Positions 1,030-29,006 are shown, counted from the first letter of the stretch. The stretch: 33,226 nt of DNA from Verrucomicrobiia bacterium (GCA_035577885.1 DATLUU010000748.1:1-33226); one strand, 5' to 3'. Numbers and translations are program-made. The notes: a model not told the origin generated them from the sequence alone.

Positions 1030-1036
1030 GGCGCCC

Positions 1037-11537: not shown

Positions 11538-12865
11538 AGCTCGCCTACGTGTGCGCGGATTTCGGGGTGCCGGTGTTCGGGCACAAGGGCGCGTCGGTGC
11601 ACGTGCGCGAGATGGTGACCGCGTTCACCGAGTGCGGTCACGACGTGCGCGTGTTCGCGCCCACGCTCGACGAGCCCGGGTCGAAGGGCGTCCAGAGTGA
11701 GCGCTTCCGCGCGCGCATCGAGCGCGAACCCGGCAGCATCGAGATCCTCGAGGTCGGGCCCGAGCCCCGGCACGTGCTGTGGCTCGACGAGCTCAAGTCC
11801 GTCGAAGCGTTCCTCGGCCGGCCGACGCGACTGCGGCAGGAACTGCGGAACCTGCTCTACAACCAGCCGCTCCGCGCGCGCCTCGGGCGTGCGCTCCTCG
11901 CCGAGCCGGTGGACTTCGTCTACGAGCGCTACTCGCTCTTCGCCTTCGCCGGCATCGACGCGGCGCGCACCCACCACGTGCCGCACGTGCTCGAGGTGAA
12001 CGCGCCGCTGGCCGACGAGCAGGAGCGCACGCGCGGGCTCGAGCTGCGCGAGCTGGCGCGGGGGAGCGAGCGGCGGATCTGGAACTCCACCGACGCGGTG
12101 ATCGTGGTCTCGCAGCGGCTGGCGGAGACCGTGGCGGCGTCCGGCGTGCCGGGCGAGCGCATCCACGTGCTGCCGAACGCGGTGGACCCGCTCCAGTTCA
12201 CGCCCGGCGCCGCGCCCGACGCGGTCCCCGCGCACGTCCGCGAGCGCGTGCGCGGTCGCTGCGTCATCGGCTTCGTCGGCTCGCTCAAGCCCTGGCACGG
12301 CGTGGAGACGTTGTTCGATGCGTTCGCGCGCCTGCTCGTCCGGCGCTGCGCCGTGCACCTGGTCGTGGTCGGCGACGGCCCCGGGCGCGAATCGCTCGAG
12401 CGGCTCGCCGCCGACCGCGGCATCGCCGAGGAGGTGACGTTCGCCGGCGCCGTCGCCCATGGGGAAGTCCCCGCGTGGCTCTCGATCATGGACATCGCCA
12501 CCGCGCCCTACACGCCGCAGCCGGACTTCTACTTCTCGCCCCTCAAGCTGTTCGAGTACATGGCCGCGGGCGTGCCGGTCGTGGCCGGCCGCATCGGCCA
12601 GCTGGACGAGCTGCTCCGGCACGAGCGCAACGCGCTCCTGCACACGCCCGGCGACGCGCACGCGCTCGCGGTCGAGCTCGAGCGGCTCGTGCGCGACCCC
12701 ATGCTGCGCCGGCGCATCGGCCTCGCGGGTCGCGACGGGATCGGCGAAGGGCACACCTGGCGCGGACACGCGCGGCGGATCGAGGCCCTCGTCCACTCGC
12801 TCGCGGGCAACGATGCGCCGCCGGACGCGGGCCAGGAGCCCGCGGCGGAGGCACCGCACGCATGA
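11534..12865 (+). CDS. Glycosyltransferase family 4
   Basis: GTG at 11534 (GTGA overlap). The N-terminus 'KLAYVCADFGVPVFGHKGASVHVREM' is followed by a C-terminal 'FSPLKLFEYMAAGVPVVAGRIGQLDELL' GT4 E-x7-E region. Confidence 0.85.
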   Translation: MKLAYVCADFGVPVFGHKGASVHVREMVTAFTECGHDVRVFAPTLDEPGSKGVQSERFRARIEREPGSIEILEVGPEPRHVLWLDELKSVEAFLGRPTRLRQELRNLLYNQPLRARLGRALLAEPVDFVYERYSLFAFAGIDAARTHHVPHVLEVNAPLADEQERTRGLELRELARGSERRIWNSTDAVIVVSQRLAETVAASGVPGERIHVLPNAVDPLQFTPGAAPDAVPAHVRERVRGRCVIGFVGSLKPWHGVETLFDAFARLLVRRCAVHLVVVGDGPGRESLERLAADRGIAEEVTFAGAVAHGEVPAWLSIMDIATAPYTPQPDFYFSPLKLFEYMAAGVPVVAGRIGQLDELLRHERNALLHTPGDAHALAVELERLVRDPMLRRRIGLAGRDGIGEGHTWRGHARRIEALVHSLAGNDAPPDAGQEPAAEAPHA

Positions 12866-14016
12866 AGCCGATCGCGCTCGTCACCAGCCAGTACCCGCCG
12901 CAGGTGGGCGGGGTCGGCCACTCCGCGGCCAGGGTGGCGCGGCTGCTCGCGCGCGACGGCCGGGACGTGCACGTGATCGCGTTCCAGAAGCACACGGAGT
13001 CGCTGCCGCTGGACGACGCCATCACCTCCTCCCGTGAGGGCGACGTGCTCGTCCACCGCGTGCTCGTCCACCACCCCACGGGCTGCAGCGAGGCGGAGAC
13101 GCTGACGCGCTCGAACCGCGAGATGTTCCAGGCGCTCGATCGCCTCACCCGCCGCTACGGCTACGGGGTGCTGCACGGCTTCTTCCTCTATCCCGCCGCG
13201 TACATCGCCGGGATCGTCGGCCGCATGCACGGCACCCGGGTCATCGCCTCGATCCGCGGCAACGACGTGGGGAAGTACGCGTTCGACCCGTTGCGACAGG
13301 GTTTCGTGCGCTCGGCGCTCGAGAACGCCGACGCCGTCACCTCGGTGGCGACCTCGCTGCTCGAGCTCGCGGACCGCGCGCTGGTGCCGCTCCACGGCCG
13401 CGGGCGCACCATCTTGAATTCCATCGACCCGCAGCGGCTCGTCGCGCGCGAGCGCCCGGACCTGGCGCTCCACGGCCTGGTCCTCGGCTCGAGCGGCTTG
13501 TTCCGCTACAAGAAGGGCATCGTGCACCTGTTCCGCGCGCTCCAGTCGCTGAACGGCGACGTGGAGTACACGCTGCTCATGGCGGGGGACGGTTTCGGCG
13601 CGGAGGACCGTGAGATGCTCGACCGCGAGATCGAGGCGCACGGGCTCGCGGCGAGGACGCGCCTCACCGGGCGCATCCCGCCCGAGCGCATGGGCGACTA
13701 CCTCCGGCTCTTCGACATCATGGTGTTCCCGTCGCTGTTCTCGGAGGGCTGCCCGATCTCCATGCTGGAGGCGATGGCGCTCGGGCGCGCGATCATCGCC
13801 AGCCGCGTCGCCGCGATCCCGGAGATCCTCCGCGATGGCGAGAACGGCCTGCTCGTCGAGCCGGGCTCGCCGGGCGAGATCGCCAAAGCCATCCGCCGGC
13901 TCGCCGGCGACGCCGGGCTCCGGAAGGCGCTCGGCGAGGGTGCGCGCACGACGGCGCTGGCCATGGACCTCGACCATGAGGCCGGGCAATGGGCTCAGGT
14001 CTACGCCGCGCTATGA
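12862..14016 (+). CDS. Glycosyltransferase family 4
   Basis: ATG at 12862 (ATGA overlap). Motifs are 'MKPIALVTSQYPPQVGGVGHSAARVA' and 'PSLFSEGCPISMLEAMALGRAIIASRVAAIPEIL'. Confidence 0.85.
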   Translation: MKPIALVTSQYPPQVGGVGHSAARVARLLARDGRDVHVIAFQKHTESLPLDDAITSSREGDVLVHRVLVHHPTGCSEAETLTRSNREMFQALDRLTRRYGYGVLHGFFLYPAAYIAGIVGRMHGTRVIASIRGNDVGKYAFDPLRQGFVRSALENADAVTSVATSLLELADRALVPLHGRGRTILNSIDPQRLVARERPDLALHGLVLGSSGLFRYKKGIVHLFRALQSLNGDVEYTLLMAGDGFGAEDREMLDREIEAHGLAARTRLTGRIPPERMGDYLRLFDIMVFPSLFSEGCPISMLEAMALGRAIIASRVAAIPEILRDGENGLLVEPGSPGEIAKAIRRLAGDAGLRKALGEGARTTALAMDLDHEAGQWAQVYAAL

Positions 14017-15101
14017 GCTCGCCCCGCAACCTGGTCGCGCTGCACATGCCGGGACGCGGCGGCGGAATTGGCGCGCCCGACTGGCGCCCCGTGGAGGAGG
14101 CCGACCTGGTGGCGTGGCTCCGCCGCGACGGGGCCCGGCGCGCCGGCGGCGACGCGTCGCAACAGCTCGAACGCGCCTCGATCACCATCGTCCGCCACGC
14201 GGCGGGCAAGCGGCTCACCGCGCGCTGCCGGCTGGTGCTCGTGGCGCCGAACGGAGGTCGCGAGCTCCTCACCGTGTTCGCGAAGCAGTACCGGCGGCGG
14301 GACCTGGCGCGGCGGCTGGCGCGCCAGCTCCGCACGCTGCGCTTCGCGCCGGGCGATCCTCCGGTGCGCTTCCCGAAGCTCCTGGGACTGGATGCGCGGC
14401 GCGGCATCGTGTTCATGGAGGCCCTGCACGGGAGGCCATTCGCGCCCGAGCTCGACGGCGCGCCCGCCCGGTCACTCGAGCCGGCAGGGGCATTGATGGC
14501 GGCGTTCCACCGCGCCTCCGCGACGGTCGAGAAGCGCGTCACCCGTGCCGACGAGCTGGTGCGCACGCGGGAGTGCGCGGACGCGATCGCCCAGGTCTAC
14601 CCGGATCTCGTGCCCGCGCTCGAGCGACTGCAGTCCTCGCTGGCGCACACCGCCTGGGGCCGGAGCGGCCGCCGGGCGCTGCTCCACGGCTCGTTCCGGC
14701 CGAACCACTTGATGGTCCACGGCAGCGAGCTCGCGGTGTTCGACCTCGAGAGCCTCCGTGTCGGCCCGCCCGGCTACGACCTCGCCAACTGCGTCGCGAC
14801 GCTCCACTACCAGCAGGCGCTGGGGCAGCTCTCGGCGCCGGCGCGGCGTCGCGCGGTGCGTGCATTGCTCCGAGGCTACCGCGCGCACGGCGGCGACGAG
14901 TCGTGCGCGCGCGCTCTCTGGCTCACGGCGGCGCTCCTCGTCCAGAAGCAGGCGCTCAAGGTGGCGACGCGATCGCGCGCGCAGGCGTCGTCGCGCGCGC
15001 GCACCCGCGCCCTGGTGGCACGCGCCGAGCAGCTCGCCGCCCGCGCCGCCGCCACGCCCGCAGGTCCGGGAATCGAGCGGCTCGAGCGGGAGCTCGCATG
15101 A
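14013..15101 (+). CDS. APH-fold kinase-like protein, paralog K5 (HGS variant)
   Basis: ATG at 14013 (ATGA overlap). Motifs are 'TVFAKQYRR', a hinge 'GIVFMEALHGRPF', 'LLHGSFRPNHLMV' (His 14685-14687, Ser 14691-14693) and 'VFDLESL'. Confidence 0.7.
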   Translation: MSSPRNLVALHMPGRGGGIGAPDWRPVEEADLVAWLRRDGARRAGGDASQQLERASITIVRHAAGKRLTARCRLVLVAPNGGRELLTVFAKQYRRRDLARRLARQLRTLRFAPGDPPVRFPKLLGLDARRGIVFMEALHGRPFAPELDGAPARSLEPAGALMAAFHRASATVEKRVTRADELVRTRECADAIAQVYPDLVPALERLQSSLAHTAWGRSGRRALLHGSFRPNHLMVHGSELAVFDLESLRVGPPGYDLANCVATLHYQQALGQLSAPARRRAVRALLRGYRAHGGDESCARALWLTAALLVQKQALKVATRSRAQASSRARTRALVARAEQLAARAAATPAGPGIERLERELA

Positions 15102-17329
15102 AGCGCTCCTTCAGCACCGGTACGGCGCGGCGGACGTGGCTCCGCCAGCACCGCCACGAGCTGCAGATGACGGCGCTGCTGCTGGTGATGGTCGTGCTCC
15201 CGAGCGCGGTGCTGGGCACGTTCGCGTGGCGCGCGATCCAGAGCGAGAAGCTGGCGTGGCGCGAGCGCGAGCGCCAGACGTACCAGGAGATCGCGAAGCT
15301 CGCGGCGCACGGGATCGACCAGCAGTTGCGGGACATCGAGCGCGACTGGAGCGCCACGCTCGACAGCCTCACCCAGGCCGCGCGCTCGCGGCGGGGGCTC
15401 GCGGCGCGCGCCGCGGCGTTCACCTCCGGGCACGCGCTCGTGGACGGCGGCTACGTGCTCTCGGTCTCGGGCGGCGTCCTCTATCCGCCGGCGCTCCATG
15501 GCGAGTCGGCGCCGACCTGGGACGCACCCGACGCCGACGAGCGCGAGCAGTTCGACGCGCTCATGAACGACGGCGAGCAGTTCGAGTACGTGTCGCACCG
15601 CTACGACCGCGCCATCGCCGCCTACCGGGAGGCCAGGCGCCACGTGCACAGCGACGAGCTGCGCAGCATGTTCGAGACCGCGATCGGGCGCGCGCAGCTC
15701 AAGGCCGGTGACCGCGAGGGGGCGATCGTCACCTACCGCCAGGTGCTGCAGCGCTACCCCGAGGTGCGCGACCTCGACCGCATGGTGGTGCGCTTCCTCG
15801 CCCAGTACCAGATCGCGGCGGCGCTCGGCGAGCTGGGACGCGACCACGAGGCCATGGACACGCTGCTCGCGCTCCACCGCGACCTGCTCGCGCGCAGCGA
15901 CGACATCACCGCGCTCCAGTACGCCTACTACGCCGACCTGATCCGCGGCCTCTCCGCCCGGCTCCTCAGCACGCCCGGTCTCAAGGGCGGGGCGGCGTAC
16001 GAGGCCGAGTTCCAGCGCCTCGCCGAGCGCACGAGGAGCGGGCTCAGCCGCAAGTACCTCGCCCACGTGCTGATGGGCGAGCTGGAGGAGTCGGTGGTCC
16101 GCCGACGGCACTGGTCCGACCAGCTCCACTACGTCTCGGATCGCAACGGCAGCGACCCGTTCCTGCTCGCCTATCGCGAGCTGCACGACCCGGCGGGCGT
16201 GAGCGTCATCGGCCTCGTCGCGGTGCAGGTCGACCTGGACGCCCTGCGAAAGGAGATCATCCCCTCGCTGCTCGGCCATCTCGACGTCGGCCACGAGGTG
16301 GCGCTGGCGGTGGTCGGGGACGAAGGGGATTACGTGCTCGGGACGGAGTCGCCTGTGCGCGAGACGCTGGCGATGCAGACGCTCGCCGATCCGTTCGACT
16401 TCTGGCGCGTCGCCCTGGGGCCGCGTGATCCCGGGCCCGCGGAGCGTCGCATGGGCTTCCGCACCGGGCTGTGGATGGCGACCATCTGCGTGCTGCTGCT
16501 CATGATCGTCGGCGGCGCCGCGGTGTCGCTGCGGCGGGCCCAGCGCCAGGCCCAGCTCGCCCGCGCGCGCGCCACGTTCGTCTCCAATGTCTCGCACGAG
16601 TTGCGGACCCCCATCGCCTCCATCAAGATGTTCTCGGAGTTGCTCGAACGCGAGCTCCTGGACGAAGACGGACGTCCGGCCGCGAAGCGCTCGGCGTCGC
16701 TGCCCCAGTACCTGGGACTCATCCGGCACGAGTCCGACCGCCTCGCCCGCTTGATCGAGAGCGTGCTCGACTTCTCCCGGCTGGAGCGCGGCGGACGCAC
16801 GTTCCGCTTCGAGCTGTGCGATCCCGCCGAGGTGTTCGAGACCGCCGTGGAGTCGTTCCGGCCACGCGCGGAGGCCGAGGGGTTCCAGCTCCAGGTCGAG
16901 CTGGCGGAGGCCCTGCCTCCGCTCCGGCTCGACACGGACGCGATCTGCCAGGTGGTGCTGAACCTGTTGGGGAACGCCGTCAAGTACAGCGACGCGGTGA
17001 AGGAGATCCAAGTGCGAGCGAGCCGGGAGGGTGCCTGGGTGGTGCTCGACGTCGAGGACCGTGGGATCGGGATCGCGGCGCGCGACCTCGCGCGCGTGTT
17101 CGACCAGTTCTATCGCGTCGACCAGCGGCTCGACAGCGGGCACGGCGGCGGCCTGGGGCTGGGGTTGACGCTCGCCCGCGCCATCGCGCGCGCTCACCAC
17201 GGCGAGATCCTCGTGCACAGCGAGCCCGGGCGCGGCTCGACGTTCCGGGTGCTGCTGCCGATCCCCCATGAGCCGGCCGGGCGTGCGGTTCCGGCGCCGT
17301 CCGGGCGGCCGGCGGAGGCAGGCCGATGA
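15098..17329 (+). CDS. Sensor histidine kinase with large periplasmic (TPR-like) sensor domain
   Basis: ATG at 15098 (ATGA overlap). TM1 is 'TALLLVMVVLPSAVLGTFAW'. A periplasmic region of about 410 aa contains TPR-like helices ('AIAAYREARRH', 'GAIVTYRQVLQRYPE'). TM2 is 'LWMATICVLLLMIVGGAAVSL'. The H-box 'SHELRTPIASI' has its His codon at 16595-16597, followed by an N-box 'LLGNAVKYS' and a G-box 'GGLGLGLTLAR'. Only about 20 aa separate TM2 from the H-box, so no HAMP domain is evident. Confidence 0.9.
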   Translation: MKRSFSTGTARRTWLRQHRHELQMTALLLVMVVLPSAVLGTFAWRAIQSEKLAWRERERQTYQEIAKLAAHGIDQQLRDIERDWSATLDSLTQAARSRRGLAARAAAFTSGHALVDGGYVLSVSGGVLYPPALHGESAPTWDAPDADEREQFDALMNDGEQFEYVSHRYDRAIAAYREARRHVHSDELRSMFETAIGRAQLKAGDREGAIVTYRQVLQRYPEVRDLDRMVVRFLAQYQIAAALGELGRDHEAMDTLLALHRDLLARSDDITALQYAYYADLIRGLSARLLSTPGLKGGAAYEAEFQRLAERTRSGLSRKYLAHVLMGELEESVVRRRHWSDQLHYVSDRNGSDPFLLAYRELHDPAGVSVIGLVAVQVDLDALRKEIIPSLLGHLDVGHEVALAVVGDEGDYVLGTESPVRETLAMQTLADPFDFWRVALGPRDPGPAERRMGFRTGLWMATICVLLLMIVGGAAVSLRRAQRQAQLARARATFVSNVSHELRTPIASIKMFSELLERELLDEDGRPAAKRSASLPQYLGLIRHESDRLARLIESVLDFSRLERGGRTFRFELCDPAEVFETAVESFRPRAEAEGFQLQVELAEALPPLRLDTDAICQVVLNLLGNAVKYSDAVKEIQVRASREGAWVVLDVEDRGIGIAARDLARVFDQFYRVDQRLDSGHGGGLGLGLTLARAIARAHHGEILVHSEPGRGSTFRVLLPIPHEPAGRAVPAPSGRPAEAGR

Positions 17330-18039
17330 AGCGGATCCTGATCGTCGAGGACGACGCCGCCCTCATGCTCGGGCTCACGAGCGTGATCGGTGACGAGGGC
17401 TACGAGCCGCACGCGGCGCGCACGGGCCCCGAAGGCCTGCGCCTGGCCAAGGAGCTCAGGCCCGACCTGATCGTGCTCGACATCATGCTGCCGGGCATGA
17501 GCGGCTTCGAGATCTGCAAGCGCGTCCGCGACGAGCGCATCCCGTCCAAGGTGCTGATGCTCACCGCCAAGGACGAGGAGGACGACAAGATCTTCGGGTT
17601 CGAGCTGGGCGCCGACGACTACCTGACCAAGCCGTTCAGCCTGCGCGAGCTGCTGGCGCGCATCCGCGCCATGCTGCGGCGCGACGACGTCCCCGCGGCC
17701 ACGCCGCCCACCCCCGAGACCGGGGACCGGATCGCGTTCGGGGACGTGGTCGTGGACTTCAAGCGCCGCGAGGTGAAGCGGGGCGGGGAGCTCCAGGAGC
17801 TCACGAACCGGGAGTTCCTGCTGCTCGAGTACCTGATCCGCCATCCCGGCGAGGTGCTCACGCGCGAGCGGCTGCTCGAGGAGAACTGGGGCTACGGCGT
17901 GCATCCCACGACGCGCACCGTGGACAACCACGTGCTGCGGTTGCGCAAGCACATCGAGCCCGATCCCGAGAACCCGATCTACCTGAAGACCGTGCGCGGC
18001 GGCGGCTACCTCTTCGACCTCGACGGCACGCATGGCTAG
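17326..18039 (+). CDS. Response regulator, OmpR/PhoB family (REC + winged-helix)
   Basis: 'MKRILIVEDD' is followed by the phospho-acceptor 'LIVLDIMLPGMSG' (Asp codon 17479-17481), 'LTAKD', 'GADDYLTKPF' and a C-terminal 'LTNREFLLLEYL...VWG-like...TVDNHVLRLRKHI...IYLKTVRGGGY' region. Confidence 0.95.
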   Translation: MKRILIVEDDAALMLGLTSVIGDEGYEPHAARTGPEGLRLAKELRPDLIVLDIMLPGMSGFEICKRVRDERIPSKVLMLTAKDEEDDKIFGFELGADDYLTKPFSLRELLARIRAMLRRDDVPAATPPTPETGDRIAFGDVVVDFKRREVKRGGELQELTNREFLLLEYLIRHPGEVLTRERLLEENWGYGVHPTTRTVDNHVLRLRKHIEPDPENPIYLKTVRGGGYLFDLDGTHG

Positions 18040-19937: not shown

Positions 19938-21407
19938 ATGATCAGGCCGCTCGTATTCGCCGCCATCGCCGTGCTCGCTTCGGCGAGCCTCGCTGCCGGC
20001 GCCACCGCGCCCCGCGAGGCAAGCCCCGCGGAGCCGCCGATGGTGTTCACGCGGCCGCTCGGGCTCCCCGAGTGCATCGACTTGGCGCTCCGCAACAACA
20101 TCCCGCTCCGGGTGGCGCGGGCCGACCTCGCCCGGGCCCACGGCGGGTACGTGTCGTCGCTGGCGAAGTTCACGCCCGTCCTGAGCGGCGGCGCGAGCCA
20201 GCAGCACACCACCGACCGGCTGTCGGCGGTCGACAGCTCCGGCCCGCTGCCGGAGGAGCGGACGATCTCCGAGAAGCACGTGATGAGCGGCGGCATCCGC
20301 CAGGAGATCCCCGGCGGATTGAAGCTCGACATCACCCAGGAGCTGGGCCCCGACGACGCCCTGCCGAGCAAGTCGCGGAACCGGCAGTTCCAGGCCACGG
20401 CGACGCAGCCGCTGCTGCGGGGCGCCGGCCTCACCGCCTCGATGGCCGACCTGCGCGGCGCCACCTACGACGAGAAGGCAGCCGAGGCCGACTTCCGGGA
20501 CCTCGAGCGCCAGACGATCCTCGACGTGAAGCTGGCCTACTACGCCGCCATCCGCGACGTGGAGCTGCTGCACGTCGCGCAGTCGACGCTCAATGCCGAC
20601 TCGCTGCTCGTGGAGGCCTCGAATGCCATGGTCGAGGCCAAGGTGGCCTCGCGCCGCGACGTGCTCTCGGCGAAGATCCGGCTCGCCGACGACTTGAGCA
20701 CCGTGGTCGCTGCCGAGCGCGATGAGCTGGGTTCGCTCGATGCGCTCAAGGACGTGATGGGCATCCCGCTCGAGACCACGGTGGCGATCTCCGACACCTC
20801 CCTCGACGCCCACATCGTCACCCTCGACGAGACGAAACTGGTGCAGCGCGTGATCGCGACGCATCCGTCGCTGGAGAGCGCGGCGTTCGCGATCCGTCGC
20901 AGCCGTCTCGATCTCACCGTGGCGCAGAACGCGCGGCTGCCGCAGGTGGATCTCCAGGCCTCCTACTTCCAGGACTTCGGGCAGAAGTTCGACACCGGCG
21001 ACATCGGTCGTGGCAGCGGCTGGGTCGCGTCCGTGAACCTGCTCTATCCGCTGTTCGACCGCTCCGCCGAGGGCGACGCGATTGCGCGCCGTGCCGAGCT
21101 CGCCCAGGCGAAGGACCGGCTGAAGATCCTCGAGCGCCAGCTGACGCTGCGCGTGCGCGAGATCGTGCGCACCGTGCGCAGCAGCGCCGAGGAGATCAAG
21201 GCGATCCAGCAGACGATCGATGCGGCGGACGACAAGCTGCAGTTCGCGACGGCGATGTTCAACCTGGGACGGGCTTCGAACCTGGACATCACGGATGCGC
21301 GCTCGGACCTGGTGAGCGCGCGCACGAAGATGGTGAAGAAACTGGTGGATTACAACGGCCAGCTGGCGCTGCTCGAGAGCCTGACCGGAGAACCGGTCGG
21401 ACGATGA
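19938..21407 (+). CDS. TolC-family outer-membrane efflux protein
   Basis: It has the signal peptide 'MIRPLVFAAIAVLASASLAAGA' and 'LPECIDLALRNNIPLRVARADLARA'. Two coiled repeat halves are present, with 'LDITDARSDLVSARTKMVKKLVDYNGQLALLESLTG' at the C-terminus. Confidence 0.9.
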   Translation: MIRPLVFAAIAVLASASLAAGATAPREASPAEPPMVFTRPLGLPECIDLALRNNIPLRVARADLARAHGGYVSSLAKFTPVLSGGASQQHTTDRLSAVDSSGPLPEERTISEKHVMSGGIRQEIPGGLKLDITQELGPDDALPSKSRNRQFQATATQPLLRGAGLTASMADLRGATYDEKAAEADFRDLERQTILDVKLAYYAAIRDVELLHVAQSTLNADSLLVEASNAMVEAKVASRRDVLSAKIRLADDLSTVVAAERDELGSLDALKDVMGIPLETTVAISDTSLDAHIVTLDETKLVQRVIATHPSLESAAFAIRRSRLDLTVAQNARLPQVDLQASYFQDFGQKFDTGDIGRGSGWVASVNLLYPLFDRSAEGDAIARRAELAQAKDRLKILERQLTLRVREIVRTVRSSAEEIKAIQQTIDAADDKLQFATAMFNLGRASNLDITDARSDLVSARTKMVKKLVDYNGQLALLESLTGEPVGR

Positions 21408-21432
21408 GCCGCCGGCCGCGAAGAGGTGCGGC

Positions 21433-22680
21433 ATGAGCACTCCGATGTGGATCGAACGTGTAGCGGCACCGCCCCGTCGGGGGTGGGAGTTCCTCGTCGC
21501 CCGCTACGGAACGCGCAACGCCTGGGTCGCGGCCGGCACCACGGCCGTGCTGCTGCTGGCGGTGGCGTTCTGGGCGATCGGGAGCACGAGCGCGGGCTCG
21601 CGCGTCCCCACCACGCGCGTCCGGCGCGAACCGGTGACGATCAAGGTCGTCGAGTCGGGGGACCTGCGCGCCAAGGACCAGGTGACGGTGAGCGCCATCA
21701 ACGACAAGCAGATCCTGTGGCTCTGCCCCGAGGGCAAGTACGTGCACGCGGGCGACACGCTCGTCGTGTTCGAGTCCGCGAAGTACGTCATCTCCACGGA
21801 CGAGGCGCATTCGGCCTTCCTCGTGGCCAAGGCGCAGCTGGAGCAGAAGCAGAACGACCTCGAGGCGCAGAAGGCGAAGGAGGAGGCGGCGCGGCAGCGC
21901 TACGAGTCGCTGCCCGAGTTGGCGAAGAAGGGCTTCGTCATGGACAGCGAGGTGCAGCAGGCGAAGCTCGCCTGGCAGGAGCTCCAGTCCACGACGCGGT
22001 CGTCCCAGGCGGAGGTGAAGGCGGCGCAGGCGAACGTGGACCGGGCCCAGAACGCGGCGGACCAGGAGATGCGCAAGCTCAGGGAGGGGGTCATGCTCGC
22101 TCCCCGCGCCGGTCTGGTCGTCTATGCCACGAGCGGAACGCCGGAGGACTCGAAGAAGATCTCCGTCGGCATGGTGCCGTTCCAGGGCCAGGACCTCATG
22201 TACCTGCCCGACGTCTCCAGCATGCTGGTCGACACCGAGGTGGGCGAGATCGACCTGGCGAAGGTGCGCGTCGGCGAGACGGCTGCCGTGATGCTCGACG
22301 CCTACCCCGGCGTGCAGTTCAAGGGCGAGGTGGTCACGGTCGCGAACCTCGCCAAGCGGAAGATCAACCGCACGAGCGGCAAGCAGACCGGCGCCAAGGT
22401 GTTCGACGTCACCGTGCGCGTGGTCGCCAACGACCCTCGCCTCAAGCCGGGGCTGAGCGCGACCGTGGAGATCCTCTGCAGCCAGTATCCGGAGGCGCTC
22501 ACGGTGCCGCTCGAGGCCGTGTTCTACGACGAGAACGAGAAGCCGTTCGTGTACGTGCGCAAGCACGGCAGGGTGGAGGAGAAGCCGGTGAACATCTCCG
22601 ACAGCAACGACCGTGTGGCGGTGGTGAAGAACCTCGCGCTGAACGAAGAGGTCCTGCTCGCGCCTCCGGGCTCGCTCTGA
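21433..22680 (+). CDS. HlyD/MacA-type periplasmic adaptor (membrane fusion protein)
   Basis: AGAGG SD. It has an N-terminal anchor 'WVAAGTTAVLLLAVAFWAIG', a lipoyl-like 'VHAGDTLVVFES', a long coiled-coil (AQLEQKQNDLEAQKAKEEAARQ...) and beta-barrel segments ('VGETAAVMLDAYPGVQFKGEVVTV'). Confidence 0.9.
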   Translation: MSTPMWIERVAAPPRRGWEFLVARYGTRNAWVAAGTTAVLLLAVAFWAIGSTSAGSRVPTTRVRREPVTIKVVESGDLRAKDQVTVSAINDKQILWLCPEGKYVHAGDTLVVFESAKYVISTDEAHSAFLVAKAQLEQKQNDLEAQKAKEEAARQRYESLPELAKKGFVMDSEVQQAKLAWQELQSTTRSSQAEVKAAQANVDRAQNAADQEMRKLREGVMLAPRAGLVVYATSGTPEDSKKISVGMVPFQGQDLMYLPDVSSMLVDTEVGEIDLAKVRVGETAAVMLDAYPGVQFKGEVVTVANLAKRKINRTSGKQTGAKVFDVTVRVVANDPRLKPGLSATVEILCSQYPEALTVPLEAVFYDENEKPFVYVRKHGRVEEKPVNISDSNDRVAVVKNLALNEEVLLAPPGSL

Positions 22681-22693
22681 GCGCGGGGATCCC

Positions 22694-23932
22694 ATGCTCG
22701 CACCCTCGGAAGCCTGGCGGATGGGCCTCGACAACCTCCGCAACCACAAGCTGCGCTCGCTGCTCACCACGCTGGGCGTGATCTTCGGCGTCACCGCGGT
22801 GGTGTCGATGCTCTCGATCGGCGAGGGCGCGAAGCGGGCCGCGGTGGAGCAGATCAAGCTCCTGGGGACGAACAACATCCGCATCCGCCGCCTCGACCTC
22901 ACGCCGCAGCAGGCGGAGGAGGCCGACCGGATGCAGTCGGACGGCCTCACGCACCGCGACGGCGAGATCATCCGCACCAACCTGCCGCACCTGACCGGGG
23001 TGTGTCCGCTCCGCTTCCTCGACGAGGAGGTCGCGCGCGGGGCGCGGCAATCGAGCGGCCGCGTCATCGGCACCGGCGTGGACTACGCCCAGGTCACCAA
23101 CTTCAAGCCTGCCGAGGGCCGCTTCCTCGCCGCGCTCGACGAGCACCTCGCCAAGCGTGTCTGCGTCATCGGCCAGGACGTGGAGAACGAGCTGTTCGGC
23201 CAGGGCAACGCCATCAACCGGCGCATCCGCATCGGCGACGACTGGTTCACGGTCGTGGGCGTGATGGAGCAGAAGAAGGTGCGCAAGGGCGGCACGAACG
23301 TGATCGCCGTTCGCGACATCAACAAGGACATCTACATCCCGATCGCCACCGCGCTCGCGCGCTTCACCGACGCCGACCGGCCGGACATGGTGGACGAGAT
23401 CGCGGTGAGGGTGTCGAGCGAGAACGAGGTGATGCCGATCGCCGACGTGCTCAAGCGGACGCTGTCGCGCACGCACCACAACGCGAAGGACTACGAGATC
23501 GTGATCCCCGCCGAGCTGCTGGCGCAGAGCCAGCGCACGCAGCGGCTGTTCAACATCATCATGGGCTCGATCGCCGCGATCTCGCTGCTCGTGGGCGGCA
23601 TCGGCATCATGAACATCATGCTCGCGAGCGTCACCGAGCGCACCCGGGAGATCGGCATCCGCCGCGCCGTGGGCGCCACCCGCCGCGACGTGCTGAGCCA
23701 GTTCCTCAACGAGACCGTGCTCGTGAGCGTGGCCGGTGGGCTGATGGGCATCGTGCTCGGCGTGATCATGGCGAAGGCGATCAACCTGTTCGCGGGCTGG
23801 GAGACCGTGATCTCGCTGGCGGGTGTGCTGGTGGCGTTCACCATCTCGGCGGCCGTGGGCATCGTGTTCGGCATCTACCCGGCGCGGAAGGCGGCCGAGC
23901 TGGACCCGATCGACGCACTGCGCTACGAGTGA
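22694..23932 (+). CDS. MacB/FtsX-type ABC transporter permease (no fused or adjacent ATPase)
   Basis: 'NLRNHKLRSLLTTLGVIFGVTAVVSMLSIGEG' is followed by a large periplasmic domain, then 'GGIGIMNIMLASVTERTREIGIRRAVGATRRDVLSQFL' and a C-terminal 'YPARKAAELDPIDALRYE'. These are classic MacB-type permease motifs. Confidence 0.9.
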   Translation: MLAPSEAWRMGLDNLRNHKLRSLLTTLGVIFGVTAVVSMLSIGEGAKRAAVEQIKLLGTNNIRIRRLDLTPQQAEEADRMQSDGLTHRDGEIIRTNLPHLTGVCPLRFLDEEVARGARQSSGRVIGTGVDYAQVTNFKPAEGRFLAALDEHLAKRVCVIGQDVENELFGQGNAINRRIRIGDDWFTVVGVMEQKKVRKGGTNVIAVRDINKDIYIPIATALARFTDADRPDMVDEIAVRVSSENEVMPIADVLKRTLSRTHHNAKDYEIVIPAELLAQSQRTQRLFNIIMGSIAAISLLVGGIGIMNIMLASVTERTREIGIRRAVGATRRDVLSQFLNETVLVSVAGGLMGIVLGVIMAKAINLFAGWETVISLAGVLVAFTISAAVGIVFGIYPARKAAELDPIDALRYE

Positions 23933-23941
23933 GCGCGGCGA

Positions 23942-23967
23942 GCCCGCGCGTTTCTCGTACCGCGGGC
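23942..23967 (+). terminator. GC-rich hairpin after the permease gene (weak terminator candidate)
   Basis: GCCCGCG (23942-23948) pairs with CGCGGGC (23961-23967) across a 12-nt loop, 10 nt after the stop at 23932. No T-tract follows. Confidence 0.3.
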
Positions 23968-24053
23968 CAGTTCGCGTGTGTACCATGGGCGTGCGCCGGG
24001 GCAGGGAAACTCGATTCGCAGCTTTCGGCGGAACCCAGTGCTGGAGTCGACGC

Positions 24054-24854
24054 ATGATCCCCCGGACGACCGCCGCCGCGGCGCGCCTCGCGTTTGCCTG
24101 GGCCCTGATCGCGGTCCGGGCCGAGCCCGCAGGCGCCCAGGCCATCGGCTACTCGTTGTCGCCGGGGAGCGAGTTCCGGACCGGCTGCTTCGAGCCGCCG
24201 TGCGCCTGCGGCCCCGTGCAGAACCCGATGACGGGCACGTTCGCGCTCATCCGGCGACCCTCGACACCGCCGTTCGCGAACTATGACGTGGTCGGGGTGC
24301 ATTGGGTGGTGCAGTTCCTGGTGGGTGTCGTGACCATCACCGGTGCGGGCAGCTATCGCGTCGGCGGCTCGGGCGTAGCACAGCAGCAGCTCTCGCTCGA
24401 TCTCGTGGTCGGTGGCGGTCCGGTCCGTCATTTCGACAGCGGCTTGGTCGCCGGTGGTGCCAACTTCCCGCGGATCGAGGCCGACATCTCGCTCTACGGC
24501 GGGATCGCGTGTGCCGACACCACGCTGATCGTGCGCGCGGGCGCGGGCGGCAGCACGCTCGACGCCGGTGCTCCCGGCCTCGCCCTCGCTCCGCTCGCCC
24601 CGAACCCGTTCCGTGGCGCCACGCGCCTCGAGTTCGCGCTGCGCGAGGACGGTCCGGTGCACGTCACCGTCCACGACCCGGCGGGACGCTGCGTGCGCAC
24701 GCTCGCGGACGGCGACTGGCTCGCCGCCGGCGCCCATGCGGTGGAGTGGGATGGAAGGGGGGAGGACGGCCGCACGATCCCGCCGGGCCTCTACTTCGTC
24801 CTCGTCCAGGCGCCGGGCGCGAGCCGGCGCACGAGCGTCATCAAGCTCCGCTGA
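24054..24854 (+). CDS. Secreted protein with FlgD-Ig-like / T9SS-type C-terminal domain
   Basis: ATG at 24054 gives the signal peptide 'MIPRTTAAAARLAFAWALIAVRAEPAGAQA'. The C-terminal ~85 aa, 'NPFRGATRLEFALREDGPVHVTVHDPAGRCVRTLADGDWLAAGAHAVEWDGRGEDGRTIPPGLYFVLVQAPGASRRTSVIKLR', match the FlgD Ig-like / Por-secretion-tail pattern. The N-terminal domain is unrecognised (Cys cluster 'CFEPPCACGP'). Confidence 0.7.
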   Translation: MIPRTTAAAARLAFAWALIAVRAEPAGAQAIGYSLSPGSEFRTGCFEPPCACGPVQNPMTGTFALIRRPSTPPFANYDVVGVHWVVQFLVGVVTITGAGSYRVGGSGVAQQQLSLDLVVGGGPVRHFDSGLVAGGANFPRIEADISLYGGIACADTTLIVRAGAGGSTLDAGAPGLALAPLAPNPFRGATRLEFALREDGPVHVTVHDPAGRCVRTLADGDWLAAGAHAVEWDGRGEDGRTIPPGLYFVLVQAPGASRRTSVIKLR

Positions 24855-25033: not shown

Positions 25034-27052
25034 ATGTCGCCGTCACGAGCCGTCGCCCGATCCCTGCTGCTCGCAGTGCTGTTGCTGACCGCAGTCGCCC
25101 GCGCCGCGGAGTCGCCCGAGCCCGCCGCGGACCGCACGCTCTCCCCCTACTTCTTCGTCGAGGGCGGCGACTCCGGGCTCGACCGCCTGCCGCTCCTGGC
25201 GACGAGCGTCAAGGTCGACATCGCCGGCGTCGTCGCGCACGTGACCGTGAAGCAGAGCTACAAGAACGACGGCACCCGCCCGATCCACGCCCGCTACGTG
25301 TTCCCGGCCTCGACGCGCGCCGCCGTGCACGGGCTCACGATGACGGTGGGCGAGGAGCGCGTGGTGGCGAGGATCCGTGAGCGCCAGAGGGCCCGGATCG
25401 AGTTCGAGACCGCCAAGCACCAGGGCAAGAACGCGGCGCTGCTCGAGCAGCAGCGGCCGAACGTGTTCACGATGGAGGTGGCGAACCTGATGCCGGGGCA
25501 GCGGATCGAGGTCGAGCTGGTGTACTCCGAGCTGCTCGTGCCCACGGCTGGCGTCTACGAGTTCGTGTACCCCACGGTCGTCGGCCCGCGCTACTCCAGC
25601 ATCCCCGCGGCCGGCGCCGCGGAGAGCGACCGCTGGATCGCGTCGCCGTACCAACACCAGGGGCAGGCCCCGGTGCATACGCTCGAGCTCAGCGGCCGGA
25701 TCGCCGCGGGCATGCCCATCTCCGGCTTCGAGAGCCCGTCGCACCCGATCCGCGTGCAGTGGAGCGACCCGGCGACCGCCACGTTCGCGCTCGACCCCGC
25801 CGAGCGCCAGGGCGCCGACCGCGACTTCGTCCTCCGCTACCGGCTGCAGGGAGACCGCGTGCAGGCCGGGCTGATGCTCTATCGGGGGCAGGACGAGAAC
25901 TTCTTCCTGCTCATGCTCCAGCCGCCGAAGCGCGTGCAGCTCGAACGCGTGCCGCCGCGCGAGTACGTGTTCGTGGTCGACGTCTCCGGCTCGATGGACG
26001 GCTACCCGCTCGAGACCGCGAAGGCGCTGCTTCGCGACCTGGTCGGGCACCTGCGGCCCACGGACACGTTCAACGTGCTCACGTTCGCGGGCACCTCGGC
26101 GCTGTGGTCGCCCAGCTCGCAGCCGGCGACCGCTGAGAACGTCGCCGCGGCGAGCGCGTTCCTCGATGCGCTCCATGCCGGCGGCGGCACCGAGCTGCTC
26201 GCCGCGGTGGAGCGCGCGACCGACCTGCCCGTGTCCGAGCCCGGCGGCTCGCGGAGCATCGTGGTCGTGACCGACGGCTATATCGGCGCCGAGAAGGACG
26301 TGTTCGGCTGGATCCGCGGTCACCTCGGGCGCACGAACGTGTTCGCGTTCGGCATCGGCACCTCGGTCAACCGCTACCTGATCGAAGGCATCGCGCGGGC
26401 CGGCATGGGTGAGCCGTTCGTGGTCACCGACGCGCGCGAGGCCGCCGCCACGGCGGAGCGCTTCCGCGCCTACATCCAGTACCCGCTCCTGACCCACGTG
26501 CACCCGACGTTCACCGGGTTCGATGCGTACGACGTCGAGCCCGCCGCGATCCCGGACGTGATGGCCGACCGCCCGATCCTGATCCAGGGCAAGTGGCGTG
26601 GCCCGCTCCGGGGCGAGGTGAAGGTCGCGGGGGAGACCGGCGCCGGTCGCTGGGTGCGTACCGCCGACGTCTCGCGCTGGCAGCCCGATCCCGCGAACCG
26701 CGCGCTCCGCGAGCTGTGGGCGCGCACGCGCGTGGGCGAGCTCTCGGACTGGAGCGGGCAGGGCGAGAGCGACGACGAGAAGCGGCAGATCACGTCGCTG
26801 GGGCTCGCCTATGATCTGCTCACGCGCTACACGTCGTTCGTCGCCGTGCACGAGGCCGTGCGCAACGCGTCGGGCGTCGCCGAGGACGTCACCCACCCGC
26901 AGCCGCTGCCGCGCGGCGTGAGCGACGCGGCGGTGGGCGGCGTCGCCGTGGGCGCGGAGCCCGGGCTCGCGTGGCTGGTGGCGCTGGTGCTGGTCTCGGG
27001 GGCCACCGTGCTCTACGTCCGTCGGCGCGTGCCGGCGCGCGCGGAGGACTGA
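25034..27052 (+). CDS. Secreted VIT + von Willebrand A domain protein with C-terminal exosortase-type sorting signal
   Basis: AAGGAG SD 7 nt upstream. It has the signal peptide 'MSPSRAVARSLLLAVLLLTAVARAAE' and a VIT-like N-terminus ('LPLLATSVKVDIAGVVAHVTVKQSYKN...ARYVFPAS'). The vWA MIDAS 'VVDVSGSMDG' has its D-x-S-x-S at nt 25979-25993. The C-terminus 'GAEPGLAWLVALVLVSGATVLYVRRRVPARAED' lies at nt 26951-27049. Confidence 0.9.
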   Translation: MSPSRAVARSLLLAVLLLTAVARAAESPEPAADRTLSPYFFVEGGDSGLDRLPLLATSVKVDIAGVVAHVTVKQSYKNDGTRPIHARYVFPASTRAAVHGLTMTVGEERVVARIRERQRARIEFETAKHQGKNAALLEQQRPNVFTMEVANLMPGQRIEVELVYSELLVPTAGVYEFVYPTVVGPRYSSIPAAGAAESDRWIASPYQHQGQAPVHTLELSGRIAAGMPISGFESPSHPIRVQWSDPATATFALDPAERQGADRDFVLRYRLQGDRVQAGLMLYRGQDENFFLLMLQPPKRVQLERVPPREYVFVVDVSGSMDGYPLETAKALLRDLVGHLRPTDTFNVLTFAGTSALWSPSSQPATAENVAAASAFLDALHAGGGTELLAAVERATDLPVSEPGGSRSIVVVTDGYIGAEKDVFGWIRGHLGRTNVFAFGIGTSVNRYLIEGIARAGMGEPFVVTDAREAAATAERFRAYIQYPLLTHVHPTFTGFDAYDVEPAAIPDVMADRPILIQGKWRGPLRGEVKVAGETGAGRWVRTADVSRWQPDPANRALRELWARTRVGELSDWSGQGESDDEKRQITSLGLAYDLLTRYTSFVAVHEAVRNASGVAEDVTHPQPLPRGVSDAAVGGVAVGAEPGLAWLVALVLVSGATVLYVRRRVPARAED

Positions 27053-27592
27053 GTGCGCCCCCTTCGCTTCGAGGTGCCGGCCGGCGACGCCGCGGTCGCC
27101 GGCGCGGCGCTCGGCACGGCGTGGGCGCTGAAGGCCTTCTATAGCAAAGCGGGCTTCGATTCGCTCGGCTGGATCCTCGGACCCACGGTGCGGCTCGTGT
27201 CGTGGACCACCGGCGTCGCGTTCGAGCTGGAACCGCACCACGGCTACCTGAGCCGTGACCAGCTGTTTCTCGTCTCGCCCGCGTGCGCGGGTGTCAACTT
27301 CCTGATCGTGGCGTTCGTGAGCCTGTGCCTCGGGTTGGCGCCCGCGTGCGGGCGCGCCGGTGAGCGCGTGGCGCTCGTGCTCGGGAGCGCGGCGGCGGCG
27401 TACCTGGCGACCGTGCTCGCCAACGCCGCGCGCATCGCGGTCGCGATCCGGTTGCACGAGGCCGGGGCCGCACTCGGGCCCCTGACCCCTTCGCGGCTCC
27501 ACTGCGCCGAGGGCGTGACCGTCTACTTCCTGTTCCTGCTCGTGCTGTTCAGCGCCGCCGCGCGGGTCACGGGGGTGCGGCATGCCGTCTAG
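27053..27592 (+). CDS. Minimal exosortase/archaeosortase-family protein (179 aa)
   Basis: The GTG at 27053 immediately follows the VIT-vWA stop (27050-27052). It is a polytopic membrane protein carrying the family's three hallmark positions in order: 'VSPACAGVNF' (Cys78, codon 27284-27286), 'LANAARIAVAI' (Asn124/Arg127) and 'RLHCAEGVTVYF' (His150). Confidence 0.75.
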   Translation: MRPLRFEVPAGDAAVAGAALGTAWALKAFYSKAGFDSLGWILGPTVRLVSWTTGVAFELEPHHGYLSRDQLFLVSPACAGVNFLIVAFVSLCLGLAPACGRAGERVALVLGSAAAAYLATVLANAARIAVAIRLHEAGAALGPLTPSRLHCAEGVTVYFLFLLVLFSAAARVTGVRHAV

Positions 27593-27827
27593 GCCACGTT
27601 CGACCCTCCCGCTCGTGTTCGTGCCGTGGCTCACGTACGTCGCGGTCACCGTCGTGGCGCCGGTGCTGAACGGCGCCGCGGCCGCTGAAGCGTATGCCGA
27701 TCACGCCGTGATCACGCTCGGCGTCTCGGGCGCCATCTTCATGCTGTGGCTCGCGGCAAGCCGGATGCGACCCGGGCACGGACGCCGGCGGCCACCCTCG
27801 GGGTCTCGTGCTCAGTCCGGGAAGTAG
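27582..27827 (+). CDS. Small 2-TM membrane protein, possible exosortase-associated partner
   Basis: The ATG at 27582 overlaps the exosortase 3' end by 11 nt, with a GGGGG-rich SD upstream. There are two hydrophobic spans ('LPLVFVPWLTYVAVTVVAPVL' and 'VITLGVSGAIFMLWLAA') and a basic tail. The 3' end overlaps the convergent hydrolase gene by 16 nt. I recognise no family. Confidence 0.4.
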   Translation: MPSRPRSTLPLVFVPWLTYVAVTVVAPVLNGAAAAEAYADHAVITLGVSGAIFMLWLAASRMRPGHGRRRPPSGSRAQSGK

Positions 27828-28822
27828 ATCGCGTTCTTGGCCTGCGCCGAGGCGTAGATCAGTCGGTGATCGTGACCGACTCCCGGCACCGGCGTGACCG
27901 TGAAGTGGTTGGGCGAGAAGAAGCGGTCCATGAACGCATTGAAGAATTGGGCGCGCTGGTAGCGGGACTGCCCCTGCAGCATCGCTTCCTTCGAGTCATC
28001 GAAGCTCTCGTCCGCCACCACGTCGGCCGTGCCCGCCAGCAGCTCGATCCGCCGCTTGGGCAGGTGGGTGCGGGCCCAGTCGGCGCCGCGCGCCTCGGCG
28101 TAGTCGTCGAGGTCCTCCAGCCCGTACTTGAAGTCGTCGTAGCCCTTGGTCTTCTTTCCGTGCGGGATCACCCAGTCACTCAAGCCATCGTTGTAGCGGT
28201 ATTCGTTCAGGTAGAGATACGACGAAGGATTCGAGGGCACGAACTTGACCAGCGCCGTGTTCGGCTCCGGCAGCTCGTCGATGTCGGTGAACGCCGCGTA
28301 GCGCTGGACGAACTGGCCACCCGCCGAGTGACCGGTGATCACCACCCAGCGGAGGTTCGGAAACGTTCCGCTGCGCAGGCGGGCGACCATCGTGTCCACG
28401 ACCTCGTAGGAGCTGACGCCGCCCGAGGAGCCGCCCGTGACCCAATCGTCCTTCCACCAGGCTTCCGTCTTCCTGTTCAAGGCGTCGCCCTTCTCCTGGA
28501 AGTACGGCGCCACGACGATCGTCTTCCCCCGCCAGTCGCGACCGGGGCTGGAGGGGATGTTGTCCACGATCGAACTGAAATAGTCCTCCACCTTGCGGCC
28601 ACTCCCGTGGATGACGATGACGGCGCGGCTGATGGCGGTGTTTCGCGCCGACAGCGGGCAATTGGAGTAGTAGGGCACCTGCTTGCCGTTGATCAGCATC
28701 GTCTGCCGAACCGCCGCTTCCGCCGAGGCGCCGGCCATGAAGACCAGCGCGAGTGCGGCGCCCAGGGTGCCCGAGAGCACGGGCCGGATCGGCCTCTGTT
28801 CAGCTCGAATGTCTCTCTTCAT
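27812..28822 (-). CDS. Secreted alpha/beta-hydrolase-fold serine hydrolase, paralog P1
   Basis: Only the last 336 aa of the 1001-aa minus-strand ORF look real, with the ATG complementary to 28820-28822. It has the signal peptide 'RPVLSGTLGAALALVFMAGASAEA' and 'VIVIHGSGR'. The nucleophile elbow is 'GHSAGGQF', with candidate acid 'AGTADVV' and His 'GVGHDH'. It ends in 'IYFPD'. Confidence 0.85.
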   Translation of the reverse strand: MKRDIRAEQRPIRPVLSGTLGAALALVFMAGASAEAAVRQTMLINGKQVPYYSNCPLSARNTAISRAVIVIHGSGRKVEDYFSSIVDNIPSSPGRDWRGKTIVVAPYFQEKGDALNRKTEAWWKDDWVTGGSSGGVSSYEVVDTMVARLRSGTFPNLRWVVITGHSAGGQFVQRYAAFTDIDELPEPNTALVKFVPSNPSSYLYLNEYRYNDGLSDWVIPHGKKTKGYDDFKYGLEDLDDYAEARGADWARTHLPKRRIELLAGTADVVADESFDDSKEAMLQGQSRYQRAQFFNAFMDRFFSPNHFTVTPVPGVGHDHRLIYASAQAKNAIYFPD

Positions 28823-29006
28823 GGTTCTGCTGTCCCTTCTCCAGCGCCAGCCATGCCGACGCGCCGATCGCCGATGATGAGGGCGTGGGGAGTGACACTG
28901 CGACAGCGTAGACGCTCCGCGCGCGGCGCTGTATCGGGCAAGCACCCTAAGCGCGAGCGCGTAGGTACCTGACCAGTCTTGCGGTGACACCGCGCGGCGA
29001 TCTGTC

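Follow-up and report, generated by a model that had tools for sequence, protein, structure and literature searches.

Exosortases are widespread in environmental bacteria. Their biochemistry has not been characterized (PMC6098224), and mutagenesis data come from a relative, the archaeosortase ArtA, in which Cys173, Arg214 and Arg253 are essential and cleavage is coupled to lipid attachment (PMC9263693); a review describes the substrates of exosortases, archaeosortases and rhombosortases as staying anchored at the surface (PMC11980579). One family of cargo proteins, combining a VIT domain with a von Willebrand factor A (vWA) domain, bears interchangeable GlyGly-CTERM, LPXTG or PEP-CTERM tails (Haft and Varghese, PMC3237569), and consecutive co-occurrence of an enzyme and its target has served as the criterion for dedicated one-to-one sorting (Haft 2023). 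We analyzed a stretch of 33,226 nucleotides (nt) from a Verrucomicrobiia bacterium (GCA_035577885.1 DATLUU010000748.1:1-33226; hereafter the window), in which a VIT-vWA protein, a polytopic membrane protein of 179 amino acids (aa) and an open reading frame (ORF) of 81 aa are encoded one after the other at positions 25,034 to 27,827. An earlier note on this DNA had read these genes as a dedicated exosortase module, and the features that it named (the DVSGS motif, the GAEP-helix-RRR tail, the 179-aa and 81-aa ORFs, and Cys78, Arg127 and His150) were all confirmed in the sequence (Table 1). In our reading, to which we give a probability of roughly 0.8, the locus is a sorting system in which exosortase K (XrtK) is dedicated to one VIT-vWA surface protein.

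The assignment of the enzyme is carried by its profile scores. Against TIGR04287, the NCBIfam model of exosortase K, the 179-aa protein reaches 95.2 bits (cutoff 55), compared with 23.5 bits for XrtA (cutoff 208), 13.9 bits for XrtW and 12.4 bits for XrtD. The identical sequence is deposited in GenBank under the name 'exosortase K' (HXJ71039.1), a database search returned 302 homologues (many of them named exosortase K by JGI or NCBI), and an exhaustive profile search for the XrtK family yielded 1,726 representative clusters (at 50% identity) with E <= 1e-3. By these matches the protein is a member of the named exosortase K family, as the earlier note had supposed in calling it an exosortase. 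The further suggestion that it may represent an undescribed subfamily is refuted, because the curated exosortase K cutoff is passed by 40 bits and the exact protein is deposited as such; the note itself had listed a fit to a named subfamily as the outcome that would take away the novelty. Cys78, Arg127 and His150 are invariant across 20 diverse homologues, and all three fall within residues 73-172, the stretch matched to positions 2-94 of the general exosortase/archaeosortase signature model TIGR04178. Among the genome-locus sequences described below, Arg127 is present in 81 of 81 and His150 in 79 of 81; the PACAGVNF block around the cysteine was the pattern used in the search, and its invariance in these sequences is therefore by construction. 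No similar solved structure was found by sequence, and the best match by fold had E = 0.08 and a TM-score below 0.3.

To place the locus among its relatives we used 80 XrtK loci, obtained with the PACAGVNF pattern in one scan of species-representative genomes and covering at least eight phylum-level groups (Candidatus Methylomirabilota and Eisenbacteria, which are the closest, as well as Desulfobacterota, Acidobacteriota, Myxococcota, Binatia, Moduliflexus-like bacteria and Chitinispirillaceae). Any upstream sequence at all is available for 78 of these loci, the set used for counts of cargo adjacency, and in 78/78 the gene next to XrtK on its upstream side, in the same orientation, encodes a VIT-vWA homologue with 47-81% identity to the cargo in the window. 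This adjacency, which is the consecutive co-occurrence named by Haft, therefore indicates that the dedicated pairing proposed for the window is real. In the window itself, the TGA stop codon of the cargo gene (27050-27052) is directly abutted by the GTG start of the enzyme gene (27053), with a GGAGGA ribosome-binding site at the junction. The G+C content is about 72%, and spurious ORFs are abundant; in spite of these, the G+C content at third codon positions (GC3) is 0.96 in the cargo frame and 0.93 in the enzyme frame, the level of real genes.

The cargo (public record HXJ71038.1, 'VIT and VWA domain-containing protein') matches the Pfam VIT model with 115 bits and the VWA_3, VWA_2 and VWA models with 46-63 bits (63 bits for VWA_3). 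Beyond the DxSxS motif of the metal-ion-dependent adhesion site (MIDAS), its vWA domain also contains the downstream MIDAS residues Thr (in GGGTEL) and Asp (in VTDG), as read from the translation. Against TIGR03788, the model of the target of a marine-proteobacterial sortase, its score is 418 bits, from a match to profile positions 1-597 of 629 that ends before the tail; the equivalog is defined by score (cutoff 551.65), an LPXTG tail and an adjacent sortase, and the cargo stands outside it. By this alignment the cargo and the marine-proteobacterial sortase target are homologous over their full length, with the C-terminal signal swapped. The MSEP-CTERM model TIGR04286 (920 positions) gave no match to the cargo at E <= 1 and none to its tail at E <= 10, and in NCBIfam the cargo matched no model of an XrtN system VIT domain protein; a model of the XrtN enzyme exists. 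The automatic name that JGI/IMG gives to homologues of the cargo, 'Ca-activated chloride channel family protein', is misleading.

At its C-terminus the cargo has the architecture of PEP-CTERM-type proteins, with a short motif, a 19-aa hydrophobic helix and an RRR cluster at the extreme end, in addition to a hydrophobic N-terminal stretch (aa 4-25). A tail of the form xEP-hydrophobic-basic occurs in the cargo alone among all six-frame segments of at least 80 aa in the window, which makes exactly one such protein on the 33-kb contig. We compared the last 60 residues of the 78 cargo homologues and of the window cargo (79 tails), and found the dipeptide E-P just before the hydrophobic helix and basic end to be invariant (79/79) between flanks that vary: the preceding residue is P in 57 tails, D in 14, A in 5 and S in 3, and the two residues that follow are mostly E or G and then L or M. 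VPEP is dominant in Desulfobacterota and Acidobacteriota, and GDEP, ADEP, GAEP, AAEP and GSEP are found in Eisenbacteria, Myxococcota and some Acidobacteriota. Because A stands at this position in 5/79 tails of a family that is mostly P-E-P, the A-E-P of the window, called non-canonical in the earlier note, is a minority lineage variant; the idea of a new signal class was ruled out, A-E-P being one of four variants ahead of the invariant E-P in a single cargo family. The cognate signal is better described as [PDAS]-E-P-[EG]-[LM] than as P-E-P.

The window tail, which has Ala-Glu-Pro in place of Pro-Glu-Pro, matched no PEP-CTERM-type model at E <= 10, and the canonical VPEPE tails of relatives gave sub-threshold matches at best to the curated models of this type. 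Since no tail, canonical or otherwise, reaches such a model, the XrtK signal is one that has no dedicated model. The invariance of E-P, the other cleavable tails borne by the same cargo family, and the match to TIGR03788 that lacks only the tail together argue that this tail is a sorting signal and not a plain anchor.

The small size of the enzyme, which had been taken as a possible mark of a minimal form, turned out to reflect the next gene. TIGR04287 covers just a core of 163 positions, and longer XrtK homologues (245-285 aa), which also score as XrtK (101-125 bits), bear a C-terminal extension that resembles the 81-aa ORF. This ORF has two hydrophobic stretches and overlaps the enzyme gene by 11 nt. 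A hidden Markov model (HMM) built from 67 fused extensions (all from other phyla, none from the clade of the window) was run against the 374 six-frame segments of the window and found the frame of the small ORF with E = 1.2e-14; the next best segment had 0.29, leaving the small ORF as the sole match. The direct pairwise BLAST comparison of the small ORF with a fused protein is weak (E = 0.005) and is superseded by the profile test, which rejects a spurious high-GC ORF and bears out the view of the small ORF as a genuine partner. By this match the 81-aa ORF is the two-helix C-terminal module of XrtK itself, separately encoded in the window clade and translationally coupled through the 11-nt overlap. 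The enzyme thus seems minimal because the module has been split off, and by the same comparison the 179-aa protein is the core of a two-piece XrtK whose full form has about 245-285 aa.

Across the 80 loci the module is fused in 68, split in 10 and incomplete in 2, the split loci being distributed over the window clade (6) and Myxococcota (4). In 10/10 split loci the module gene has a separate ATG or GTG start that overlaps with the stop codon of XrtK. In the window clade the two genes share 17 or 11 nt, always in one frame, and in three Polyangiaceae loci they overlap in ATGA, in the other frame; coupled starts in two frame offsets argue that fission occurred at least twice independently and is not an artefact of assembly. 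An assembly error or a programmed frameshift was rejected as the source of the split, given about 95 protein clusters of about 180 aa, 10 independent split loci, and the separate start codons. The Tyr, Pro and His residues of the module listed in Table 1 are invariant, and the residue before His is mostly acidic. An AlphaFold model of a fused homologue is a confidently predicted single domain (predicted local distance difference test [pLDDT] 91.5, predicted TM-score 0.86), in which the two extra helices have a pLDDT of about 90. From the order of the helices, the Cys, Arg and His of the core and the Pro and His of the module would lie near the same, presumably periplasmic, face of the membrane; with these residues on the catalytic face, the module probably belongs to the enzyme proper and is no accessory to it.

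Several observations on the module stand beside this result. The Prokaryotic Genome Annotation Pipeline calls the small ORF with 70 aa from a GTG at 27615 (HXJ71040.1, 'hypothetical protein'), and the start is either 27582 or 27615. One homologue of the small ORF bears the misleading JGI/IMG automatic name 'membrane associated rhomboid family serine protease'. A soil-metagenome contig (L081) is 98% identical to the window over 10.7 kb, and straight after the small ORF it has an extra segment of about 2.9 kb (L081:10754-13623, placed at about 27803-27812 of the window) with a phytase / FlgD-Ig / Por_Secre_tail gene of the type 9 secretion system (T9SS) type; this is a strain-level insertion or deletion at the end of the module, and in the JGI gene calls of that contig the small ORF is missing. 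Positions ~147-203 of the 920 in TIGR04286 (MSEP-CTERM) were weakly matched by 9 of 30 module sequences (E = 6.6e-4 to 0.03), in the same register wherever coordinates were checked, and any other family was matched by at most 3 sequences. In Bacteroidota the partners of XrtK are, we assume, MSEP-CTERM proteins, and if that holds, the module may form part of the partner in these bacteria. This lead found no confirmation when the module profile was used in a word-indexed database search, whose 16 matches were all small stand-alone proteins, with no larger carrier among them.

Table 1. Positions of the exosortase K locus and of its surroundings in the window
Feature	Position	Strand	Basis
Cargo gene, 672-aa secreted VIT + vWA protein	25034-27052	+	ORF, GC3, Pfam, TIGR03788
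Probable Sec signal peptide MSPSRAVARSLLLAVLLLTAVARA, likely cut after ARA	25034-25105	+	Hydrophobic stretch aa 4-25; cut site read by eye
VIT domain, aa 56-164	25199-25525	+	Pfam PF08487, E = 2.5e-33
vWA domain, aa 312-469	25967-26440	+	Pfam VWA, VWA_2, VWA_3
MIDAS DxSxS motif, DVSGS	25979-25993	+	Position confirmed in sequence
Pre-signal spacer QPLPRGVSDAAVGGVAV, conserved	26900-26950	+	Tails of 78 homologues; family consensus QPLPLPxGVSxLAVG
Tripartite signal GAEP-GLAWLVALVLVSGATVLYV-RRRVPARAED	26951-27049	+	Verified in sequence
Signal part 1, G-A-E-P	26951-26962	+	
Signal part 2, transmembrane helix GLAWLVALVLVSGATVLYV	26963-27019	+	
Signal part 3, basic end RRRVPARAED	27020-27049	+	
Exosortase K catalytic core, 179 aa, GTG start	27053-27592	+	TIGR04287; public record HXJ71039.1
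Cys78 (PACAG)	27284-27286	+	
Arg127 (NAARI)	27431-27433	+	
His150 (HCAEG)	27500-27502	+	
Split-off C-terminal two-helix module of XrtK, 81 aa	27582-27827 (ATG 27582)	+	HMM from fused extensions
Module Tyr19, invariant	27636-27638	+	
Module Pro27, invariant	27660-27662	+	
Module His41, invariant	27702-27704	+	
Glycosyltransferases, four APH-type kinases, two ABC exporters	40-15098		
ORFs without Pfam match in this cluster	3340-4806; 9591-11534		
TPR histidine kinase + OmpR-type regulator	15104-18036		
TolC-like, HlyD-type and MacB-type genes	19938-23929		
Protein directly upstream of cargo, FlgD-Ig-like C-terminal domain	23823-24851	+	
Convergent 352-aa ORF	27815-28870	-	

In the mechanism that we propose for this dedicated XrtK system, the cargo would be exported by Sec via its N-terminal signal peptide; its C-terminal helix would then serve as a transient anchor in the inner membrane, the Arg cluster being cytoplasmic. 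The XrtK core, together with the two-helix subunit, would recognize [PDAS]-E-P at the outer end of this helix, and at this site Cys78, aided by Arg127 and His150, would cleave by way of an acyl-enzyme intermediate. Transfer to a putative acceptor in the membrane or envelope, in analogy to the lipid attachment of ArtA substrates, would resolve this intermediate, and the metal-dependent (MIDAS) vWA adhesion domain of the cargo would be displayed on the cell surface. Several points weigh against this account. The general family models stay just below their cutoffs on the 179-aa protein (TIGR04178, 22.5 versus 23 bits; Pfam PF09721, 21.5 versus 25.7 bits), a threshold that three fused relatives (P0108, P0107 and P0096) pass for TIGR04178 with 24-35 bits. 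A literature search for exosortase K and for MSEP-CTERM gave no relevant paper, and no experimental study of exosortase K was found; what we propose for cleavage, its site, the acceptor and the place where the cargo ends up is drawn from ArtA and from the logic of the genomes. The third critical residue of ArtA is Arg253, whereas XrtK has His150. The proximity of the module His to Cys78 was deduced from helix order and not from model coordinates. Finally, the count of one substrate comes from adjacency and from a single contig of 33 kb.

The main rival keeps the cleavage and drops the transfer: XrtK would be a simple releasing protease, which frees the VIT-vWA protein to the periplasm or the medium. 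Hydrolysis is the default fate of a thioester intermediate, no gene for acceptor synthesis is conserved next to XrtK in the 80 loci, and the biochemistry of exosortases offers no guide, being uncharacterized (PMC6098224). We nevertheless regard simple release as unlikely, because the relative ArtA couples cleavage to lipid attachment (PMC9263693), the substrates of related enzymes stay at the surface (PMC11980579), and marine proteobacteria use a sortase, an enzyme that is a transpeptidase, for the homologous cargo (PMC3237569). A second rival gives up cleavage altogether, so that the tail would be a mere membrane anchor and XrtK a chaperone, regulator or scaffold. That the tail reaches no curated model of a sorting signal and that the first Pro of P-E-P is replaced by Ala in the window would agree with it; yet an E-P that is kept in every one of the 79 tails, exactly at the outer boundary of the helix and across phyla, speaks against it, as do the invariant Cys, Arg and His of the enzyme, the adjacency in every locus with upstream sequence, and the other cleavable signals that homologous cargoes bear at the same position (PMC3237569), and we consider it very improbable. 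A new, undescribed minimal subfamily with a novel AEP-type signal, which the short enzyme, the A-E-P motif and the narrowly missed general models might have favored, can be set aside almost entirely, since the protein and its fused relatives score as XrtK, the GenBank record of the protein bears that name, the next ORF accounts for the missing length, and A-E-P recurs as a minority form in a mostly P-E-P family.

Downstream of XrtK, about 52 of the 80 loci have a response regulator, whose start coincides with the XrtK stop or falls a few bases from it, and next to it a histidine kinase. The pair in one of these loci (L032:6693-7382 and L032:7720-9147) passes the models of CreB (335 versus a cutoff of 273) and CreC (561 versus 356), and its counterparts in other loci are 59-92% (response regulator) and 43-90% (histidine kinase, full length) identical to it; by these scores and identities the common cassette is cargo-XrtK-CreB-CreC. 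The pair is absent from the window clade, from Myxococcota and from Blastocatellia, and in the window a convergent gene takes its place downstream of XrtK. The two-component system that the window does contain, 7-10 kb upstream, reaches 175 (cutoff 273) for CreB and 113 (cutoff 356) for CreC; its response regulator and histidine kinase were rejected as orthologues of the XrtK-linked pair, with 40% and 27% identity versus the 59-92% and 43-90% above and scores below both cutoffs. Since this two-component system is not of the CreBC type, the window bears a reduced version of the cassette.

Further upstream, the first 15 kb of the window hold a same-strand cluster of glycan type, comprising GT28-C, GT1 and GT4 glycosyltransferases, four APH-type phosphotransferases and two genes with ABC_membrane and ABC_tran domains, in which the repetition of kinases and glycosyltransferases is unusual; two of its ORFs have no Pfam match (Table 1). 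The cluster ends about 10 kb upstream of the module, with the two-component system and an efflux operon in between. It had been suggested as a source of the acceptor, but it is conserved in 0/80 loci: the glycosyltransferase, kinase and ABC genes of the window do not recur near XrtK in these loci, so the proposed acceptor link is left without support, and the glycan operon was rejected as a functional partner.

After the OmpR-type regulator there follow a gene of no assigned function, a DUF5666 gene, TolC, HlyD, a MacB permease and a FlgD-Ig-tailed protein, and then the trio. The TolC-like outer membrane efflux protein, the HlyD-type adaptor and the MacB-type permease (MacB_PCD + FtsX) stand in tandem, and neither the permease gene nor its neighbors gave a match to an ATPase domain. 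The FlgD-Ig-like C-terminal domain of the protein directly upstream of the cargo resembles those of T9SS-type tails; the gene is kept in the near-identical soil-metagenome contig and not in more distant XrtK loci. On the other side, the convergent ORF shares about 16 nt with the end of the small ORF and sits in the stretch of lowest G+C content in the window (0.66). It has a signal-peptide-like N-terminus and no Pfam match, and its GHSAGG motif suggests a serine hydrolase. The public label of the metagenome-assembled genome is Verrucomicrobiae, and the nearest relatives of XrtK and of the cargo in species-representative genomes are labeled Candidatus Methylomirabilota (78-81% identity) and Eisenbacteria; it may be that one bin or the other is not reliably labeled.

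Taken as an annotation, then, the earlier reading is right, and the system is real and widespread; the family is already named and the design already published. What our analysis adds is modest, namely the universal pairing with a VIT-vWA protein, the [PDAS]-E-P signal, the split module with its invariant residues, and the linkage to CreBC in relatives. In the public records, the 81-aa 'hypothetical protein' can be renamed as the XrtK C-terminal module, and the 'VIT and VWA domain-containing protein' as the XrtK target. One enzyme, one adjacent substrate and a strict E-P make this the simplest setting for testing the cleavage site, the acceptor and the catalytic residues, and the natural separation of the catalytic core from the two-helix module makes the role of the latter directly testable. 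A broader picture, which we would sooner doubt than adopt at present, is that XrtK is a two-part enzyme whose module, with its invariant Tyr, Pro and His toward the periplasm, is an essential but separable subunit (fused, encoded by its own gene, or possibly residing within the N-terminal membrane region of MSEP-CTERM proteins), and that the cargo cassette is a widely mobile adhesin unit that has taken on three or more unrelated sorting enzymes (sortase, rhombosortase and exosortase) and, in most lineages, a CreBC-type envelope sensor. If this tentative picture is true, a naturally split exosortase would be a convenient handle with which to reconstitute and dissect exosortase chemistry, a reconstitution of which we know no earlier instance.

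Compared with the systems already described, the locus combines elements of several. XrtA with its PEP-CTERM substrates (EpsH; TIGR03109, TIGR02595) belongs to the same superfamily and has in common with XrtK the tripartite signal, its E-P core and the presumed cleavage by Cys (PMC1569441, PMC3237569); XrtA acts on many substrates in a genome and has a link to exopolysaccharide loci, whereas XrtK has one adjacent substrate and no conserved link of this kind. ArtA of Haloferax volcanii, which acts on PGF-CTERM proteins, is the only experimentally studied member of the superfamily, and its function depends on a conserved Cys and a conserved Arg; its substrates lose the tripartite signal and acquire a covalent lipid anchor (PMC9263693). 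It differs from XrtK in being archaeal, in having several substrates and a PGF motif, and in using Arg253 where XrtK has the invariant His150, and no two-helix module, separate or fused, has been described for it. The marine-proteobacterial sortase system (target TIGR03788, sortase TIGR03784, response regulator TIGR03787, histidine kinase TIGR03785) has a cargo that is homologous over its full length, shares the logic of one enzyme and one target in adjacent genes (PMC3237569), and has a parallel four-gene layout, as most XrtK loci have a response regulator and a histidine kinase after the enzyme. Its enzyme, in contrast, is a sortase, unrelated to the polytopic exosortase XrtK, and its target ends in LPXTG where the XrtK cargo has xEP; to its two regulatory models the XrtK-linked pair is similar at a generic level only (141 and 138 bits, against cutoffs of 336 and 612). 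With exosortase K as modeled in TIGR04287, finally, the enzyme in the window shares the invariant Cys, Arg and His and the polytopic membrane fold, and it differs in that its module is a separate, translationally coupled gene, whereas in 68/80 loci the two are fused.

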